The notes beneath the pieces are model-generated. The model was not told the origin of the DNA. It saw only the letters and a program-made list of their open reading frames with translations, and did not search any database. From Bacteroidales bacterium (lineage in GTDB: Bacteria > Bacteroidota > Bacteroidia > Bacteroidales > UBA3663), in NCBI GenBank assembly GCA_045628525.1, contig JAZQPJ010000034.1, positions 4,061-68,060 of the forward strand: a stretch of DNA of 64,000 bases. Reading direction: 5' to 3'. A program made the translations under genes and the position numbers. Shown one piece after another: positions 4,571 through 41,684 of the stretch. Each line of letters opens with the position of its first letter. The first letter of the stretch is position 1.

Positions 4571-6253
4571 TTACTTGTTCACAGCAGCTTCTGCCTGCAC
4601 CACATTGATCGCATAGTCGCCTATCTTCTCGCATTCGGCAATGAAGTCGTTGAAGAAGGCGCCGAGGCGGTAGCTGTACTTGCCCTCGTTCACGGCGATG
4701 AGGTTCTCCTCGCGGCTGATGGTGCGCAGGGAGTTGATCTCGTTTTCTGCCTCGATGTTGTCGCGCAGATTGATTACCACGTGTTCAGGGTCGGTGATCA
4801 CCTGACGCATCTCATGCAGGGCGCGCTCGGTGAGGTCGAGCATCTGGGTCATCTGCATCTTCTGGTAGTCGGTGAAGTCGCTCGGCTCATTCTCACGCTT
4901 GCGCTGCAGGGTACGGCCGAGGTGGAACATCGAGTCTCCGATCGACTCCAGCTCGTCCACCTGTCGCAGCATCTGGGCGATGTGGTTCTTCGAGTAAGCC
5001 GAGAGCCTGCCCTCCGACACCTTGCGCAGGTAGCCGGCAATCTCCACCTCCATGTTGTCGGTGATCTGCTCGTAGTGTTCCAGTCGCTTGTATTCCTCGG
5101 CAAAGTCGCTCTCCTTCTTGGCCGAAAGGGCGCGGTTCACCATGTCGAGCATCTTCTGGCAACGCTCGGCCATGACACCCACCTCGTTGCGTGCCTGCAG
5201 GATGGAGAGCTCGGCCGTAGAGAGCAAGCCGCCGCTGATGTAGCGCAGACGTGTCTCCTCCTGCGTCTCCTTCTGAGGCAGCACGCGGCACACCAGCTGC
5301 TCAATCTGCTTGACGAAGCCAATCAATAACAAGGTGTTGAATACGTTGAATGCCGTGTGGAAGGCCGAGAGCTTGAAGAGGTCGTTGTTGCCAGCGCCCA
5401 TCACATGCTCCACGAACCATGACACGCCGTTGCAGAACGGATAGAACATCAGGAGCACCACCACCACGCCGAACACATTGAAGAACATGTGCGCGAGTGC
5501 CGCGCGTCGTGCCTGCGTGTTGGCGGTCAGGGAGGCGATGAATGCCGTGATCGTCGTACCGATGTTCTGACCCATGGCCAAAGCCGCTGCCTGCTCAAGG
5601 CCGAAGCCGGGGATCTGCATGTCGAACAGCATCAACGTGATGGCCATCGTGGCGGCCGATGCCTGAACGAGCATGGTAACCAATGCACCCACTACCACGA
5701 AAAGCAAGATTGTGAGGAAACCGCCATCGGCCACGCCTGCCAGCATCTGTGCCACCAGTTCGCCGATGTTCAGATCGGTGGCCGATTGCTGCAGGAAACT
5801 CAAGCCCATGAACAGGAACGAGAAGCCGAAGATGAACTCGCCGATCGACTTGCGATGCGAATTGCTGCTGAAGATGAGCGGAATGCCAAAGGCAAGCAAC
5901 GGCAACGCCAGGGCGGCGATATTGACCTTGAAACCGACAGCCGAGATGATCCATGCCGTCACCGTGGTGCCCACATTGGCACCCATGATCACGCCGATGG
6001 CTTGTGCCAGCGTCATCAATCCGGCATTGACAAACGAAACGACCATCACCGTGGTGGCCGAAGAGGATTGGATCAAGGCGGTCACGGCAATGCCCGTGAG
6101 AACACCCATCACACGATTGCGCGTCATGGCAGCCAGGATGCTGCGCAGACGATCGCCAGCAAATTTCTCAAGACCCTCGCTCATCGTCTTCATGCCGAAG
6201 AGGAAGAGTGCCAGGGATCCGATCAGGGAGAGGAGATTCAGAATTGTATCCAT
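4571..6253 (-). CDS. Na+/phosphate cotransporter family protein (NptA/YjbB type) with a C-terminal PhoU-like helical domain
   Basis: Duplicated Na_Pi_cotrans motifs (QSSSATTVMVVSF, GANVGTTVTAW; GQNIGTTITAF) and a long helical C-terminal half. Confidence 0.9.
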   Translation of the reverse strand: MDTILNLLSLIGSLALFLFGMKTMSEGLEKFAGDRLRSILAAMTRNRVMGVLTGIAVTALIQSSSATTVMVVSFVNAGLMTLAQAIGVIMGANVGTTVTAWIISAVGFKVNIAALALPLLAFGIPLIFSSNSHRKSIGEFIFGFSFLFMGLSFLQQSATDLNIGELVAQMLAGVADGGFLTILLFVVVGALVTMLVQASAATMAITLMLFDMQIPGFGLEQAAALAMGQNIGTTITAFIASLTANTQARRAALAHMFFNVFGVVVVLLMFYPFCNGVSWFVEHVMGAGNNDLFKLSAFHTAFNVFNTLLLIGFVKQIEQLVCRVLPQKETQEETRLRYISGGLLSTAELSILQARNEVGVMAERCQKMLDMVNRALSAKKESDFAEEYKRLEHYEQITDNMEVEIAGYLRKVSEGRLSAYSKNHIAQMLRQVDELESIGDSMFHLGRTLQRKRENEPSDFTDYQKMQMTQMLDLTERALHEMRQVITDPEHVVINLRDNIEAENEINSLRTISREENLIAVNEGKYSYRLGAFFNDFIAECEKIGDYAINVVQAEAAVNK

Positions 6254-6255
6254 AT

Positions 6256-6302
6256 TTTCAAATTACAGATTACAGATTTCAGATTACGAATTACAAATTA
6301 CG
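6256..6302. repeat. Heptamer tandem repeat (GTAATYT/GAAATCT x6-7 on the gene strand) filling the 5' leader of nptA
   Basis: The gene strand reads CGTAATTTGTAATTCGTAATCTGAAATCTGTAATCTGTAATTTGAAAAT-ATG. The 18-mer at 6256-6273 is identical to 57896-57913. Confidence 0.85.
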
Positions 6303-6314
6303 TTATTGACGCTG

Positions 6315-6322
6315 CAAAGATA
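6315..6322 (-). promoter_or_regulatory. -7 promoter box (TATCTTTG) for nptA
   Basis: Matches TAnnTTTG, which places the heptamer repeats in the transcribed leader. Confidence 0.5.
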
Positions 6323-6424
6323 TTACAACAATGTTACAATTTTATGACAAATGCTAAAAAAATGCGCAAATACCCTATTATTAGATCTTATAGTGGTCGT
6401 TTTTGTCTGTCCTCCTCAAAAAAA

Positions 6425-6552
6425 AGTTGAATGGATTAGACGTTAACTTCAGCCCTAGTTGAATGCTTTTAGGCATAACTCCGACAAGAGTTGAATGATT
6501 ATCTCTTAACTCCAAAACCTATTGAGTTCAGCCTTGTCTGGCCTGTTCAACT
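6425..6552. repeat. Three direct repeats in exact 32-bp register (AGTTGAATG-N9/10-TAACTYC) plus a degenerate fourth unit
   Basis: Units start at 6425, 6457 and 6489. The fourth (6521) ends in GTTCAACT, an inverted copy of the AGTTGAA core. Confidence 0.7.
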
Positions 6553-6846
6553 AAATCCAGAGTTTGTTGTTGCGTGGAGGGGGAGAGTATGAAACGATAT
6601 CTGTGAAATGATATGGATAGTATTGGTTTGATATAGTTTATATTTCATGCGGGCGTTTTTAGGTGTTTTGTTTGGGATTTGTCGTGACGACACGTCCCTT
6701 TTTCAATTTCATAATGTCTTGCGTTCTGGATAGATTTGACGATTACAAATGTGAAGAAATGCAATGTTTCTACTTGTTTAGGATGTACAAACCCAAATAT
6801 TTTTATGATTTATTTGATTTTATTTGTAACCGCAAATTATTTTGCG

Positions 6847-6854
6847 TATATTTG
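6847..6854 (+). promoter_or_regulatory. -7 promoter box (TATATTTG) for the DUF3791/DUF3990 module
   Basis: Matches TAnnTTTG about 40 nt upstream of ATG 6896. Confidence 0.45.
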
Positions 6855-6895
6855 CACCGTGATAATGTCGAATCATTAGATTAGTGTGAAGTAAT

Positions 6896-7114
6896 ATGTC
6901 AAAGCAAGAACAAGATAAGTCATATTTCGTTGCTTTCTGCATTGAGCAGTATAAGGCAGCAAAGGGAATGGACGGTGCAGACGTGGCGCAGCTGTTCTTC
7001 CAAAAAGGCGTGGCATCGTACCTCGCTGATAACTTTGATGTGCTTCATACTCAAAGCCGACAGTGGCTTATGGAGGAGATCGATGAATATCTGGAACAAA
7101 ACGAAGAGAAGTAA
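6896..7114 (+). CDS. DUF3791-family small helical protein
   Basis: 72 aa with the family-typical FVAFCIEQYK...YLADNFDVLHTQ. Its stop lies 1 nt before the next start. Confidence 0.75.
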   Translation: MSKQEQDKSYFVAFCIEQYKAAKGMDGADVAQLFFQKGVASYLADNFDVLHTQSRQWLMEEIDEYLEQNEEK

Positions 7115-7115
7115 A

Positions 7116-36028: not shown

Positions 36029-36850
36029 ATGAAGAAATTACTGTTCCGCATCATAGCATCATTAGAGAAACGTTATTGGGCCCTGTCATATTGGCCACGT
36101 CACATAGTCGGCATTTGCATTCTTTTGGGTGTCTTTGCCGGAGTGTTTGGCATTGTTTATGGCTGTTATTATGGTGTTCGCTCAACAGTCGTCTATGTGT
36201 CAGAATTATTAAACTCTGGCAGCAGTTCAAATGATGTTGATGAAGGGGCGACGGATCTAGAAGAATATAGTCGTCCCGGACGTAATCATTTTGAATTTCC
36301 ATTAAAGGCAGAGGAAAAGCATCCCAAGCGTCGTCCGAACTATCATCGTGACTTCGATTATATCAACGATGTGCACATGGGAGCCGCCCGACGCCTCGGC
36401 ATCAAGCCATTGGTCGACCGTGACGCAGTGAAAGGCATGGAAAACAAGTTGGTCGAACTTCATAACACTCGCTACTATAAAATTGATCCACTGACCAGTT
36501 CTGTACCATATCTGGTCCCGAAGGCAGCAGACTTTCTGACAGCGTTAGGACGCCTGATGCAAGAATACAATGGCACAAAGTCACGTTTTATTGTTACAAG
36601 TGTATTGCGCACACAGGCCGATGTCAAATCTCTCCGTCGCCGCAATGGCAATGCCTCCGAAAACTCTACACATTGCTATGCAACAACAGTAGATATTACC
36701 TATAACCGATTTGACATTCATGGCAATACCTGGGAGGGGAAACTGAAGGAAGATCTGGCAAAAGCCTTGTATGACCTGCAGGAACGTGGCTACTGCTATG
36801 TGAAATATGAGGTAAAGCAACCCTGCTATCACATCACGGTACGTCCATGA
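36029..36850 (+). CDS. Conserved Bacteroidales membrane-anchored protein (DUF5715-like, family assignment from memory)
   Basis: An N-terminal TM segment and a C-terminal VTSVLRTQADVKSLRRRNGNASENSTHCYATTVDITY block. Confidence 0.55.
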   Translation: MKKLLFRIIASLEKRYWALSYWPRHIVGICILLGVFAGVFGIVYGCYYGVRSTVVYVSELLNSGSSSNDVDEGATDLEEYSRPGRNHFEFPLKAEEKHPKRRPNYHRDFDYINDVHMGAARRLGIKPLVDRDAVKGMENKLVELHNTRYYKIDPLTSSVPYLVPKAADFLTALGRLMQEYNGTKSRFIVTSVLRTQADVKSLRRRNGNASENSTHCYATTVDITYNRFDIHGNTWEGKLKEDLAKALYDLQERGYCYVKYEVKQPCYHITVRP

Positions 36851-37145
36851 ATAGACAGCAGGGCTGAAGCAATAATATTTTGGAAATAAAAAATGTAGTG
36901 TAGTACAATAAAAGAGAGCGGTTGCCGTTATATTAGAAAACAAAAATATAATATTGCCTATGAAGCATCGCTCTACCTCTTCACTAATTTCATCTTTGAT
37001 GTTTGCCAGCAGTTTGGCTTTGCCAGCAGTTTCGGACGATGCAATTAACATTGACGAAAAACCAATGGATTGTATCGCAACGCAAGGACCACGTCAAGAG
37101 ACCATTTGTGCGTTACAGATGTTTGCCCGTGTTTATACTGCGAAA

Positions 37146-39098
37146 TCAAAAGATGGATGGTTCGACAAACATGCGCTTGCCAGCGAACCCGTCTAATTGT
37201 TGCAAGCTAAGTCCGAGTCGGAAATGCAACATCTGTAGATGTGAATCGTCGCGTGCAGTGAGGTGTTGACCCAGTGCATCGTTTTCAGGTGCAATCAGTA
37301 TGTACGAATCCTGACCGCCGTCATCCTTTATCATGAGGTTGAGGGTGGTTTCTTTTTTTAGTTCCTCTATGAACTGGCTCAGTCCGCCATGTCCCTCGTA
37401 AAGTTGCGTCAACCTGTCTGCAATTGTCACATCAAGCACGGCAGGCAGCGTACCATCCTGTATTCTGTGATTGAGGTATTGGTCGATTTTGGCAGAGAAC
37501 TTGGTACGAAGACGCTGAAGCAGATCCTCTCCATCAAGAATAGGGCTCTTGCCATAAAGACATTCAACAAGTTGCAGATATTGAACAGTAAGGTGTTCAC
37601 GATCGAGTGCAATGGCCTGTGCTGCCTGATGAATCGGTTCAATGGGGAAAATACCGCATAGCGATGCAGGTTCGCTCTCGGTCAGACTACGCTTTGTGGC
37701 GAGTATGGCATCGTAGCAGTAGGCTGTAAGCCGATCGCTGCCATCCGACAGAGCCGCTACCTGAGGAATCAGCTCGTTAAGCAGTTTGTTGGCAAACGTG
37801 CATCCAGGTATCAGTGTGCGCTGTTCGAAGAAATTCTGCAGCAGCGCTTTGTATTGACTCAGCAAAACCTGATTCTTGCCACGCAGACGATCGAACAGTC
37901 CGAGGTTGTTCCATTGATTGGTGAGCGCATCTAATTCAGCCTGGATTGATTTGACCTGTTGCTGTGACTGCTGCAGAATCTGGTTGATTTCAAGCACCTT
38001 CTGCTGCAATCGGTTCACGATGGCGTGCACAATATCCTTGAGCACTGAGGGTGGGTAAGGAGATTGCAACATCGTCTTGTGCAAGCCGTCGCTAATGATT
38101 GCCAGCAGTATGCGGTTGTAGTCGGCTGTCTTCTTGAACTCAAGATTGAAGAAGAACTCTACACCCAGCTCTCGGAAACGACTTTGGAACAATACCTCAA
38201 CACGGTTGCGCATCTGTCTGAACCATTCTTCACGCGGCAAGTCATTCATGCCTTGGCAGGACAGGTCGATTGATTGCTGCCAATAGTTGGATGGCACGTC
38301 CCATGTCTGGTCGGAGTCGGGATTCAGATTGATGAACATTTCCTCCTGCAGGCAAACCCGCATATTCGAGAGGGGCACCTGAGCGAGAATAGAATCCGCT
38401 TCCTCGTTGCACACTTCCATTTCTACAGGATTGTCTTTCACCTGTGTCAATGTCAGCAAAGCATTCAGATATGCCTGATGCAGGTGGTAGCGCACTTCGT
38501 CGTCGGGATAGCTGATGCCCGTTGCATTGAACGTGGCAAAAACTGGTGGGAAGTCGCAAGCATCGCCTAAAGGAATATATATTTTTTGCTCAATGACCGG
38601 ATTCTGGGTTACATTGAACAAGAACTGGGAGAGGCTGACCTGCGTTGCATCTGTGTATAGAAAACAGGTTTGCAGAAGTTGTATGTCGAGATAGTCTGTA
38701 ACGGCATTGTTGATGCATGCCAGACTCTTCCATGCACCGTTTCGCTCCTTGTCTGAGCAATGATTCAGATCGGGAAGCTGGCAATAGCAGAAATTATGAT
38801 AGGCGTATTTCTCGGAGACAGCAAAATTCTTGCGGATCAATGTAAGCGTCTGAACGATCATCGACCCGACGTCCACATGATCGAGTGTAGCACATATATG
38901 GAAAGAGATGTCGCTTGGGTTTTCTTCCTTGCGGCGCAATTCATTGACTTCATGCAGCAACTCACGTTCCTCCAGCTGCTTGCTGAGGAACAACAATGTT
39001 GCATTGCGCGAAACCAAAGAGGTGGTTGCAAACTGCCTGTACACGGGGTTTTGTATGCGTGACTGGCAGTAATTGAGGAAGATGATCAGATGCTTCAT
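37146..39098 (-). CDS. Large hypothetical protein (650 aa) with a central Gln-rich coiled coil, translationally coupled to tdk
   Basis: A long uninterrupted ORF whose ATG overlaps the tdk stop (TAATG). I saw no P-loop or other recognisable catalytic motif. Confidence 0.7.
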   Translation of the reverse strand: MKHLIIFLNYCQSRIQNPVYRQFATTSLVSRNATLLFLSKQLEERELLHEVNELRRKEENPSDISFHICATLDHVDVGSMIVQTLTLIRKNFAVSEKYAYHNFCYCQLPDLNHCSDKERNGAWKSLACINNAVTDYLDIQLLQTCFLYTDATQVSLSQFLFNVTQNPVIEQKIYIPLGDACDFPPVFATFNATGISYPDDEVRYHLHQAYLNALLTLTQVKDNPVEMEVCNEEADSILAQVPLSNMRVCLQEEMFINLNPDSDQTWDVPSNYWQQSIDLSCQGMNDLPREEWFRQMRNRVEVLFQSRFRELGVEFFFNLEFKKTADYNRILLAIISDGLHKTMLQSPYPPSVLKDIVHAIVNRLQQKVLEINQILQQSQQQVKSIQAELDALTNQWNNLGLFDRLRGKNQVLLSQYKALLQNFFEQRTLIPGCTFANKLLNELIPQVAALSDGSDRLTAYCYDAILATKRSLTESEPASLCGIFPIEPIHQAAQAIALDREHLTVQYLQLVECLYGKSPILDGEDLLQRLRTKFSAKIDQYLNHRIQDGTLPAVLDVTIADRLTQLYEGHGGLSQFIEELKKETTLNLMIKDDGGQDSYILIAPENDALGQHLTARDDSHLQMLHFRLGLSLQQLDGFAGKRMFVEPSIF

Positions 39099-39697
39099 TA
39101 CTTTCTATTCTTGTCTTTCATCATTTCATGGTAGCAGGCACGACACAGTGGCATGTATTCCTGCTTTTCACCAATCAGCACCTGATCCACACCTTTGGCG
39201 ATGCGATAGGAATAATTGGCAAGGTGTCCGCACTTCATGCAGATGGCACGACACTTGTACACATCATCGGCAATGGCCATCAGTTCGGGCATGGGGCCGA
39301 AAGGTTGACCAAGGTAGTCCATGTCAAGACCAGCCAGGATGACTCTTTTGCCGGAAGAAGCCAGAGCATTAACAACCTTGACCAGTTCGGCATCGAAGAA
39401 CTGTGCCTCGTCGATAGCCACTACGTCAACGTCGTCGGTCACGGTGTTGGCAATGACCTGAGCAGACTGTACAGGAATGGCTTCACTGCTGCTGTGTGTA
39501 TGTGAGACGATGTCGCGCTCGCTGTATCGGTAATCGAGCGATGGTTTGAATATCATGATATTGCGTTTGGCAATCTTGACGCGATTGATTCGGCGGATCA
39601 ACTCTTCGGTTTTGCCTGAGAACATTGATCCACAGATTACTTCAATACATCCGGTGGAACGATAGGAGTTTGCGGGAAAACTGTTTTCGAAATACAT
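39098..39697 (-). CDS. tdk: Thymidine kinase
   Basis: P-loop GSMFSGKTEELI and C-terminal zinc-ribbon cysteines CMKCG...CRAC. Confidence 0.95.
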   Translation of the reverse strand: MYFENSFPANSYRSTGCIEVICGSMFSGKTEELIRRINRVKIAKRNIMIFKPSLDYRYSERDIVSHTHSSSEAIPVQSAQVIANTVTDDVDVVAIDEAQFFDAELVKVVNALASSGKRVILAGLDMDYLGQPFGPMPELMAIADDVYKCRAICMKCGHLANYSYRIAKGVDQVLIGEKQEYMPLCRACYHEMMKDKNRK

Positions 39698-39737
39698 AAT
39701 ATTATGTTTTATTGTTGATTATTCAATTTTTAGAAGG

Positions 39738-39975
39738 GTTCTTCGATTCGAGACGTCGAAAAGCATGTCCGGAATCTTGGCGAAGGAATTCGAGTTGTCG
39801 AATAGTTTGTCCGGACCTTGTGACAAGGAATTCGAGCCGTCGAAAAGGCTGTCTGGATTCTTGGACAAGGAATTCGAGCCGTCGAAGAGCCTATCCGAAA
39901 CCTCAGACAAAGATTTCGAGCCGTCGAAAAGCATGTCATAGAACTCTGGCAAAGATTTCGAGACGTCGAACTCTA
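39738..39975. repeat. Tandem array of about 5.6 units in exact 42-bp register (ATTCGAGCCGTCGAAAAGSMTGTCYGGAWYCTTGGMCAAGGA)
   Basis: TTCGAG anchors at 39747, 39789, 39831, 39873, 39915 and 39957. Each unit carries TTCGA-N4-TCGAA and CCTTG/CAAGG mini-palindromes. Confidence 0.9.
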
Positions 39976-39977
39976 TT

Positions 39978-41684
39978 TTATCGTTCTTCAGATGCTGTTA
40001 CTACATTGATGATGTAGTCACCGATCTTTTCGCATTCATTGATGAGCATCATGAAAAACGTACTTTGCTGATATTGCACCTCGTTGCGGTCAAATTGATC
40101 CAATACGGAGTTACGATATTGATTGCGGAAGTTGTTGATCTCGTCCTCGATGTTGAATGCTTTGTTCAGAGCGCTTGACGTCACTTCGTCCATGTCCATC
40201 AGCTTGAGCATGTGCTGCAAGGCATCGTCGGTGAGAGCGAACATCTTGTTTACATTCGTGTTGAGCTCAGGACTGAAGCGTACCCGTTGCTCGCTCTTGC
40301 TGTACAAGGTGGCAGACAGGTGATAGATGGAATCGGCAATGGATTCAAGTTCATCGACGATCTTGTACAGATTGCGACACAACTGCTCACCTTGCCCAGA
40401 CAGCGATTTAGGTGAGATCTTGTTGAGGAAGTCCGCAATTTCCATCTCTGCCCGATCGCTTTCCTGCTCCATCGTCCGCACTTGGTCATCGATCTGCAAC
40501 TGACGCTCAGAACCAAGCGGTTCGGACAACATCTCACGAACAAGCGAGAACATGATATAGACATTCTCACCATATCTTGTCGCTTCTTTCTGCACTTGAG
40601 CCAAAGCCATTTCGCTTGATGAAATGATGCCAGAGGTGATGAATTGCAGCTTGAATGACTGTTCGGAGTCGGGTTCTGTCTCTGGCGTGTTCCTGGAAAC
40701 AAGGCGTACAAACTGATGACGCAAAGGCAACAACAAGAGCATCGTCACGACATTGAAAGCTGTATGGAAAAGGGCCAGACCGGCTGGCATGTTTTCCTGA
40801 AGGTTCGGATTGCCTAAGCCGATGCTTTCGCAGCAATAGGCAATCGTGGATTCTCCGTCTGCCAGTTTTCCATTGAAAATAAAATACAAGCCAAGCATCA
40901 GCAGGAGCACCCAAAGCATTCCAATAAAATTAAATAGGAAATGTAACAGGGCTGCACGTCGTGCCATGGCATTGGCCTTTCGTGCTGCAATCAATGGAGG
41001 TATGCAAGTGCCGATATTGGCCAATACGATGAGTGCGCAGCCAAGATCGAACGATATCCATTCAGACACACACAGCAGTAGGGCGATGAGGAAGGTGATG
41101 GTTGACGAACGGAACAGAACGGTTAGCAGCAATCCGCTCAGCAAGACAACTGATACCGACAATACATACAGATATCCCTCTCCATCGAGCCCCTGGGGCA
41201 ACCACGTACCATCCATCTGGTGGAATGAAACCTGCATGAAGTGGATGCTAATGACCAGAAGTGCTATGCCAATGATCAGTTCACCCCATGAGACAGACGA
41301 TCCCTTGCGGAATCCGAAGAGCGGAATCGTTATGGCAACCAGCGGAAAAGCCCAGAGATAAGCGTCGAAATTGAAGCACAGGAGCGCAATGAGCCAGGCG
41401 GTGATGGTTGTGCCGATGTTGGCACCCATGATGACAGATGCTGATTGCGAAAGCGTGATCAATCCGGCGTTGGTGAACGAAACCGCCATCATGGTTACAG
41501 CAGTTGATGACTGAACCAGAGCGGTGACACCAAGGCCGGTGAACATACCTGTCAGGGCATTGCCTGTCATGGCTGATTGCGCATGACGCAGCACATCACC
41601 CGCAATCTTTTGCAGATTGTCGCTGATGAGCTGCATGGCAAACAGGAAGAGGCCAATGGAGCCGATGAGGGTCAGTAGTGTCAT
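39978..41684 (-). CDS. Na+/phosphate cotransporter family protein (second copy) with a C-terminal PhoU-like domain
   Basis: QSSTAVTMMAVSF and GANIGTTITAW motifs, and the same architecture as 4571-6253. Confidence 0.9.
   Translation of the reverse strand: MTLLTLIGSIGLFLFAMQLISDNLQKIAGDVLRHAQSAMTGNALTGMFTGLGVTALVQSSTAVTMMAVSFTNAGLITLSQSASVIMGANIGTTITAWLIALLCFNFDAYLWAFPLVAITIPLFGFRKGSSVSWGELIIGIALLVISIHFMQVSFHQMDGTWLPQGLDGEGYLYVLSVSVVLLSGLLLTVLFRSSTITFLIALLLCVSEWISFDLGCALIVLANIGTCIPPLIAARKANAMARRAALLHFLFNFIGMLWVLLLMLGLYFIFNGKLADGESTIAYCCESIGLGNPNLQENMPAGLALFHTAFNVVTMLLLLPLRHQFVRLVSRNTPETEPDSEQSFKLQFITSGIISSSEMALAQVQKEATRYGENVYIMFSLVREMLSEPLGSERQLQIDDQVRTMEQESDRAEMEIADFLNKISPKSLSGQGEQLCRNLYKIVDELESIADSIYHLSATLYSKSEQRVRFSPELNTNVNKMFALTDDALQHMLKLMDMDEVTSSALNKAFNIEDEINNFRNQYRNSVLDQFDRNEVQYQQSTFFMMLINECEKIGDYIINVVTASEER

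Follow-up and report, generated by a model that had tools for sequence, protein, structure and literature searches.

The FtsZl1 proteins form a widespread branch of the tubulin/FtsZ superfamily and are described by Pfam family PF13809 (Tubulin_2), the Pfam counterpart of the proteins that Makarova & Koonin grouped in 2010 as 'FtsZ-like' (PMC9871819). Each begins with an FtsZ-like GTPase domain, continues through an extended coiled coil and closes with a C-terminal domain that is mostly helical; they lack the T7 loop and the C-terminal domain of FtsZ and tubulin, and their genes are usually found in operons with genes encoding a vWA-domain protein, a divergent GTPase, OmpA-like proteins or Ser/Thr kinases (PMC2875224). 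A role in membrane remodeling has been proposed (Makarova & Koonin 2010, PMC2875224). The family itself is functionally uncharacterized; no experimental study was found in the literature searched, no structure has been solved, and a profile of the family touches the Protein Data Bank (PDB) just at the T4 region of beta-tubulin and FtsZ. Here we describe X650, a 650-aa protein encoded in a 64,000-nucleotide stretch of DNA (the window) from a Bacteroidales bacterium (contig JAZQPJ010000034.1, positions 4,061 to 68,060). As judged from its sequence profile, X650 belongs to the FtsZl1 (Tubulin_2) branch of the tubulin/FtsZ superfamily as a degenerate member specific to its lineage, and its gene directly follows, and overlaps, the gene for thymidine kinase (TK). 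The two genes and their junction are as follows (window coordinates).

37146..39098, minus strand, stop codon included: X650, a putative degenerate FtsZl1 / Tubulin_2-like protein of 650 aa (list of open reading frames, family profile, hhalign, AlphaFold2)
39098..39697, minus strand: tdk, a type II thymidine kinase of 199 aa that leads the conserved pair (Pfam, NCBIfam)
39096..39100, minus strand: stop/start overlap TAATG (read from the sequence)

A first-pass annotation of this DNA, made from the letters alone, had presented X650 as an orphan, a description overturned by profile searches that place it in FtsZl1 / Tubulin_2. Direct scans of the protein against Pfam, NCBIfam and PADLOC returned coiled-coil noise alone. 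When a profile of the X650 family was run by hmmsearch against 1.84e9 representative sequences, near-full-length family members scored 459-987 bits; below the family the scores fall sharply to ~140 bits, where the matches become proteins of ~1000 aa with E-values of 1e-35 to 1e-15. All eight of the ~1000-aa matches that were tested contain PF13809 ('Tubulin like', E 1e-41 to 1e-66), and often a weak match to PF00091 (Tubulin/FtsZ) as well. The X650 family alignment was then compared by hhalign with an alignment of 33 FtsZl1 (PF13809-type) proteins, and the two matched over 580 columns (Prob 100, E = 3.9e-46), pairing X650 residues 29-608 with FtsZl1 residues 116-777; within this span, X650 residues 29-215 pair with FtsZl1 residues 116-344, which lie in the PF13809 region. 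Several motifs are common to the two families, namely (N/K)HLII at the N-terminus, the FH(I/V/L)C strand, YPE(D/E)E(I/V), (Y/F)Rx(x)GV and FAxKLL.

An AlphaFold2 model of X650 calculated from the family alignment is confident (mean predicted local distance difference test score, pLDDT, 89.7; predicted template-modeling score 0.70). In the model, strands and helices alternate to residue ~216 and are followed by helices, two very long helices, more helices to residue 583 and a small sheet at residues 596-630. Three regions can be distinguished.

38379..39098, minus strand: N-terminal alpha/beta domain, aa 1-240, predicted homolog of the FtsZl1 tubulin-like GTPase domain and ~85 aa shorter between T1 and T4 (hhalign, AlphaFold2)
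37677..38045, minus strand: two long predicted helices, aa 352-397 and 408-474 (AlphaFold2), paired confidently with the coiled-coil region of FtsZl1 (hhalign)
37149..37205, minus strand: C-terminal tail LDGFxGxRMFVEPSIF, aa 632-650, a candidate docking peptide (alignment, AlphaFold2)

The modeled long helices are read as a hairpin equivalent to the FtsZl1 coiled coil. The first-pass annotation had described a central Gln-rich coiled coil flanked by two alpha/beta halves; the Gln-rich stretch does lie in the first long predicted helix, with the second after it, and the N-terminal part is alpha/beta, but the C-terminal half is nearly all helix apart from the small sheet. A helical region is predicted at residues 487-583 and falls within the span aligned to FtsZl1, but that span stops ~230 aa short of the FtsZl1 C-terminus, and X650 closes with its own conserved peptide. 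Residues L632, G637, F638, G640, E646 and F650 of this tail are invariant, the pattern MF[VI]EP[ST][ILM]F is present in nearly all of the 138 members examined, and pLDDT falls at residues 648-650.

Several results weigh against the assignment. PF13809 gives no match to the X650 of the window even at E <= 1 (gathering threshold 27 bits), so membership of FtsZl1 rests on profile-profile evidence. A Foldseek search of the PDB with the full model returned no match with E < 1e-3, and a model of the N-terminal domain alone (aa 1-245, pLDDT 79) gives matches of similar quality to tubulin and to generic three-layer or Rossmann-like folds (G-alpha, SDR), its best TMq being a weak 0.45, to beta-tubulin. 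Neither X650 alone nor the family profile found a significant match among PDB sequences (best fumarase, E = 0.023, and SopB, 0.3). The full model did retrieve beta-tubulin (9e2g_AB, probability 1.00) and CetZ2 (probability 0.99), and the predicted fold is compatible with the FtsZl1 assignment without being independent proof of it; the assignment rests on the sequence profiles. Most of the Foldseek list for the full model consists of long-helix proteins (Mgm1, dyneins, pore-forming toxins) with E > 2e-3; the dynamin-like proteins and helical toxins match the long helices only, and these matches were not read as homology.

X650 differs from FtsZl1 at the two glycine-rich loops that would bind GTP, both of which have been replaced.

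39057..39080, minus strand: former T1 loop, aa 7-14, FLNYCQSR in place of GLGGTGGK (motif tables)
38865..38903, minus strand: former T4 signature, aa 66-78, FHICATLDHVDVG in place of FHICxGLAGGTGSG (hhalign, motif search)

The alignment register at these sites is fixed because the FH(I/V/L)C and N-terminal (N/K)HLII motifs are common to both families. At the N-terminus, xNHLIIGLGGTGGKIIRxFRK of FtsZl1 corresponds to MKHLIIFLNYCQSRIQNPVYRQF of X650, and at the signature loop VTFHICxGLAGGTGSGSVVDVVSQIRKxY corresponds to (I/V)(S/T)FHICATLDxxxxGxxxxQTLTLIRRxF, such that the FH(I/V/L)C strand motif of the T4 region is retained and the glycine loop is gone. Both loops are replaced in 38/38 aligned members. 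In motif searches the T1 motif was found in 0/138 X650 family members as compared to 105/124 distant FtsZl1 matches, and the T4 motif (GGGTG(S/T)G signature) in 0/138 as compared to 101/124; judged by their N-termini and lengths, the distant matches without T1/T4 seem mostly to be fragments or motif variants. A further ~85 aa that separate T1 and T4 in FtsZl1 are missing from X650. Regular expressions detected no P-loop or GGxTG motif in the protein, and no transmembrane segment is expected (top 19-residue Kyte-Doolittle mean 1.2), in agreement with what the first-pass annotation had said of P-loops and membrane segments. Because the T1 and T4 loops are lost, X650 is most likely unable to bind or hydrolyze GTP as tubulins do, and from these sequence differences we infer a loss of GTPase activity.

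A word-indexed search of 5.8e9 proteins identified 126 homologs of X650 at E <= 1e-3. The 120 that were listed all have E <= 8e-127, almost all are 626-708 aa long, Pfam domains are absent from all of them, and the handful with names come from Bacteroidales metagenome-assembled genomes (MAGs). The number of homologs, together with 39 invariant columns in a 38-sequence alignment (35-88% identity), places the reading frame far beyond chance. A scan of one genome per species (185,579 species) located 37 X650 loci, nearly all titled as uncultured Bacteroidales or Prevotellaceae MAGs and two just as 'bacterium'; where the title gives a source it is rumen or gut, including Candidatus Liminaster caballi and Candidatus Colivivens equi. 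The family is restricted to one clade of uncultured gut/rumen Bacteroidales. A search of phage records (50,697) and plasmid records (72,556) found no homolog, and an origin from phage or plasmid was rejected. Within the clade X650 evolves faster than its neighbors, with 31-72% identity as compared to 57-82% for tdk and ~93% for a purH-like gene. The most divergent GTDB-species members (L029 and L030, 34-35% identity, matched at 6001-8097) are intact genes of 708/709 aa with an N-terminal extension of ~50 aa.

The gene upstream of X650 is a thymidine kinase gene, as the first-pass annotation had named it; its product passes both TK thresholds (Pfam PF00265, E = 7.5e-53, 179 bits; NCBIfam equivalog NF003296, 252.5 bits, cut-off 183). 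The junction reads ...AAG TAA TG AAG CAT... on the minus strand, where the TAA stop of tdk and the ATG start codon of X650 have base 39098 in common, exactly as first noticed. This arrangement recurs across the family. Among the 36 GTDB-species loci in which the 5' side is present, tdk is directly upstream of the X650 gene in 34, and its stop overlaps the X650 start in 28 of these: 24 have a 4-nt NTGA overlap with ATG, GTG or TTG starts, one (L001) has the 1-nt TAATG overlap seen in the window, and three have longer ones. In the remaining six linked loci the two genes are 3-38 nt apart. TK likewise precedes the two most divergent members, P0131 (27% identical) and P0129 (~27%), at distances of 77 and 140 nt. 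The genes on either side of the pair are variable, as the position upstream of tdk is occupied by a Na/Pi transporter, a LytTR regulator or another gene, and that downstream of X650 by DUF5715, a ~195-aa protein family or several others on either strand, but tdk and X650 stay joined. The linkage to tdk is a property of the X650 subfamily that is conserved throughout. Since the start codon overlaps the tdk stop, X650 and TK are probably translated in a coupled manner, through termination-reinitiation; of the co-translation originally proposed, the overlap has proved real and conserved.

The 3' end of X650 is accompanied by a second conserved gene.

36960..37196, plus strand: conserved small open reading frame (small ORF) of 78 aa, a putative gene (tblastn, motif searches, codon-position diversity)

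It is convergent to X650 and in the window overlaps its last 51 nt, stop codon included, so that the codons of the conserved C-terminal tail overlap a reading frame on the opposite strand; the two genes overlap in most loci. The small ORF was found in 37/39 loci with the 3' end on the contig, including the most divergent, and is absent only from L024 and L026. Its length is 47-85 aa (usually 47-57 aa), it starts with M(K/Q)HR(S/F)T, and it contains the internal motif GP(S/R)xET(I/L)xxL(Q/R)(M/L)(F/L)ARx(Y/F)xP. In a 51-nt core outside the X650 coding sequence, nucleotide diversity among 33 distinct sequences is 0.40/0.24/0.62 at the three codon positions, and arginine codons switch between CGN and AGA; both features argue for a translated gene and not an RNA element. 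The small ORF tracks X650, as its own upstream neighbor differs between loci. When 241 million metagenome records were scanned with a degenerate DNA pattern for the motif alone, eight of nine matches adjoin X650 and the ninth falls by chance within a long, unrelated reading frame, so that every true match is X650-adjacent. Several public gene callers predict the small gene, which has never been named or characterized; its peptides are called 'hypothetical protein', with one such peptide predicted on 201 contigs, and it has no match in Pfam or NCBIfam. We regard the small ORF as part of the tdk-X650 module, where it may provide a partner protein, convergent antisense transcription or both.

Taken together, these sequence data lead us to favor, with moderate confidence, the view that X650 is a degenerate FtsZl1 protein without GTP-binding loops, likely a non-enzymatic scaffold, that forms a two-gene unit with TK in a module to which the small gene also belongs. 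X650 would keep the FtsZl1 plan of a tubulin-type N-terminal domain, long central helices and a helical C-terminal region. Having lost both glycine loops, the ~85 aa between them and the last ~230 aa, it would neither bind nor hydrolyze GTP in the manner of tubulin and would act as a structural or scaffold protein, that is, a pseudo-GTPase. Termination-reinitiation at the tdk stop would couple its translation to that of TK, and our best guess is that it serves as a scaffold or regulator co-produced stoichiometrically with the enzyme, with the predicted stalk and the conserved C-terminal peptide making protein contacts. The gene arrangement points to a possible physical or functional partnership of X650 with TK or with the small protein. 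That X650 might bind, localize or regulate TK, or sense thymidine nucleotides through a remodeled pocket, is speculative. The most elaborate form of this idea, in which the three genes make one module, the loop-less tubulin relative is a TK scaffold, regulator or thymidine-nucleotide sensor acting through a remodeled pocket and the C-terminal peptide, and the ~50-aa protein is a third subunit or an antisense-coupled regulator, strikes us as distinctly unlikely as a whole.

The main rival to the favored view accepts that X650 is a degenerate FtsZl1 protein and holds that its position next to tdk is historical hitch-hiking: the gene would have landed behind tdk in the ancestor of the clade, would use the tdk promoter, and would perform an FtsZl1-type role (the proposed membrane remodeling, or cytoskeletal assembly) unrelated to nucleoside salvage. 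We consider this possible, although on the unlikely side. All homologs are in one uncultured Bacteroidales clade with extended and broadly conserved synteny (heptosyltransferase - LytTR - Na/Pi - tdk), so the linkage could be inherited and not functionally required. Bacterial operons commonly contain stop/start overlaps of 1 or 4 nt, which compact packing easily yields. Moreover, in L029 and L030 the intact X650 gene comes straight after the Na/Pi transporter gene with no adjacent tdk, and the closest full-length FtsZl1 protein examined (P0138) is encoded in an unrelated operon that lacks tdk. Set against these points, the tdk-X650 pair outlives rearrangements on both sides, persists down to 27% protein identity, and keeps its overlap while the start codon switches between ATG, GTG and TTG, all of which argue for selection on co-expression. 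In addition, none of the genes that usually accompany FtsZl1 (vWA, GTPase, OmpA, kinases; PMC2875224) lies nearby.

A second alternative holds that the former GTP pocket has been remodeled, with Arg, Ser and His side chains that still bind a nucleoside or nucleotide, perhaps one of thymidine, making X650 a sensor or regulator of salvage. In the X650 alignment S13 and R14 (at the T1 position), R45 (which opens the following helix) and H67 (on the T4 strand) are invariant, and R31 (in the T3-equivalent stretch), E44 and E46 are nearly so. This pattern suggests that the former pocket residues are still under selection and that the site might bind something, which counts against a simple scaffold; the conservation may reflect either structural constraint or a remodeled binding site. 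The strict pairing with TK would also fit, as the product pool of thymidine kinase (dTMP to dTTP) is feedback-regulated. However, no glycine-rich loop is left, Pfam, NCBIfam, PDB sequence and N-domain Foldseek searches revealed no similarity to another nucleotide-binding motif, and the explanation is purely inferential. We consider it improbable, and the nucleotide-sensing function that the first-pass annotation had suggested is unsupported speculation; the canonical nucleotide-binding loops are destroyed. Weakest of all is the proposal, of which that annotation had raised the phage-defense part, that X650 belongs to an anti-phage or conflict system exploiting nucleotide metabolism, to which we give hardly any credence: a distant FtsZl1 relative (P0229) is fused to a novel STAND NTPase and the X650 gene evolves faster than its neighbors, but the best PADLOC-DB 2.0 match of X650 is non-significant (PDC-S06, E = 0.009, 12 bits), PADLOC finds nothing for seven of eight FtsZl1 relatives and a weak Csx25 match for the eighth (P0156, E = 0.006, 14 bits), the phage and plasmid collections contain no homologs, and the gene has native GC content and housekeeping neighbors at a fixed, syntenic position that is not a variable island.

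The module sits in a native context that is neither mobile nor defense-related. X650 lies near tdk, a Na/Pi cotransporter, a LytTR regulator, a heptosyltransferase and a DUF5715 protein, and further housekeeping genes in the neighborhood encode a topoisomerase, LptD, PFP and a purH-like protein. The DUF5715 gene (36029-36850, plus strand), whose 273-aa product is predicted to have a hydrophobic segment near the N-terminus, is convergent to X650, which therefore ends its own transcription unit; the same convergent gene is found in about one third of the related loci, with the small ORF just downstream of the DUF5715 gene and on its strand. X650 had been described as more AT-rich than its surroundings, but its GC content (0.485) is the same as that of tdk (0.485) close to that of the Na/Pi transporter gene (0.492), and a little below the mean of the window (0.51); it does not distinguish the gene, and a foreign or AT-rich island was rejected. 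The 280 bp that separate tdk from the Na/Pi-cotransporter gene contain a 42-bp tandem repeat (~5.4 copies, 39746-39970), each unit of which has the palindrome TTCGA-N4-TCGAA. The repeat was found neither elsewhere in the window nor in any related locus; it is therefore species-specific and outside the conserved module, and may be a promoter-proximal array or a repeat expansion. An Rfam scan of 36700-40100 detected no riboswitch or leader and a single sub-threshold match to a long non-coding RNA. A scan for sigma-70 promoters and terminators was uninformative, as expected for Bacteroidota.

If the elaborate three-gene reading, distinctly unlikely as it is, were correct, a nucleoside-salvage enzyme would have its first described partner of cytoskeletal type, and FtsZl1 a first functional handle. 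The clade could be regarded as a natural dissection of FtsZl1, in which the stalk and the core of the head are kept, GTP binding is discarded, and the remainder is packed into a compact three-gene arrangement with a well-understood enzyme. An interaction between TK and X650 would give a testable entry both to FtsZl1 function and to nucleoside salvage in abundant uncultured rumen and gut Bacteroidales. Should the linkage be only historical, the result would be a new pseudo-GTPase subfamily, useful for annotation and unsurprising. The analysis also illustrates that one exhaustive profile search can place a 650-aa 'hypothetical protein' that has no Pfam match.

X650 can be compared with several known systems. 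Canonical FtsZ, tubulin, CetZ and TubZ belong to the same superfamily, to which X650 would be related through FtsZl1; X650 has neither their GTP-binding loops nor a recognizable T7 loop or C-terminal domain, and its structural similarity to them is weak (TMq <= 0.45, E > 1e-3). Dynamin-like proteins (BDLP, LeoA, Mgm1, MxB) resemble X650 in having a globular alpha/beta head and a long helical stalk; Mgm1 heads the full-length Foldseek list, MxB, BDLP and Drp1 are lower, and the X650 stalk has a faint NCBIfam match to LeoA. Their GTPase domain, however, contains a P-loop (G1, GxxxxGK[ST]) that X650 lacks, the matches are non-significant (E >= 2e-3, TM ~0.1), and the resemblance is at most an analogy. 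Site-degenerate FtsZ/tubulin paralogs, compared by description, have likewise lost the GTP-binding signature, are presumably non-enzymatic and belong to other branches of the superfamily; no such nucleotide-site-degenerate paralog is known to be coupled to a thymidine kinase. Archaeal FtsZ paralogs that lack functional motifs have been noted previously (PMC2875224).

The closest relatives, the FtsZl1 proteins, differ from X650 in several respects. They are ~1000 aa long as compared to ~650 aa, and their last ~230 aa have no counterpart in X650, as the alignment stops at residue ~777 of ~1005. Unlike FtsZl1, X650 is confined to one Bacteroidales clade, and its partners are tdk and a small convergent ORF, whereas the vWA, GTPase, OmpA and kinase genes of FtsZl1 operons are absent from its neighborhood. 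Gene context also varies among FtsZl1 proteins themselves. At the loci of P0138 (L038-L040), a conserved set of genes on the same strand encodes a 630-aa FGE-sulfatase-domain protein, a 260-aa unknown protein, FtsZl1, a 733-aa unknown protein, and an ABC transporter (ABC ATPase and FtsX-like permease); no vWA Pfam match was found among the products called there, unlike the operon types described in 2010. P0229 (1376 aa) carries Tubulin_2 fused to a C-terminal novel STAND NTPase (nSTAND1)/AAA_22 region, an architecture that resembles conflict and signaling systems and hints, by analogy, that some FtsZl1 proteins may act there. FtsZl1 and, by prediction, X650 present their parts in the same order, with an N-terminal tubulin-type domain, a long central coiled coil and a helical C-terminal region.

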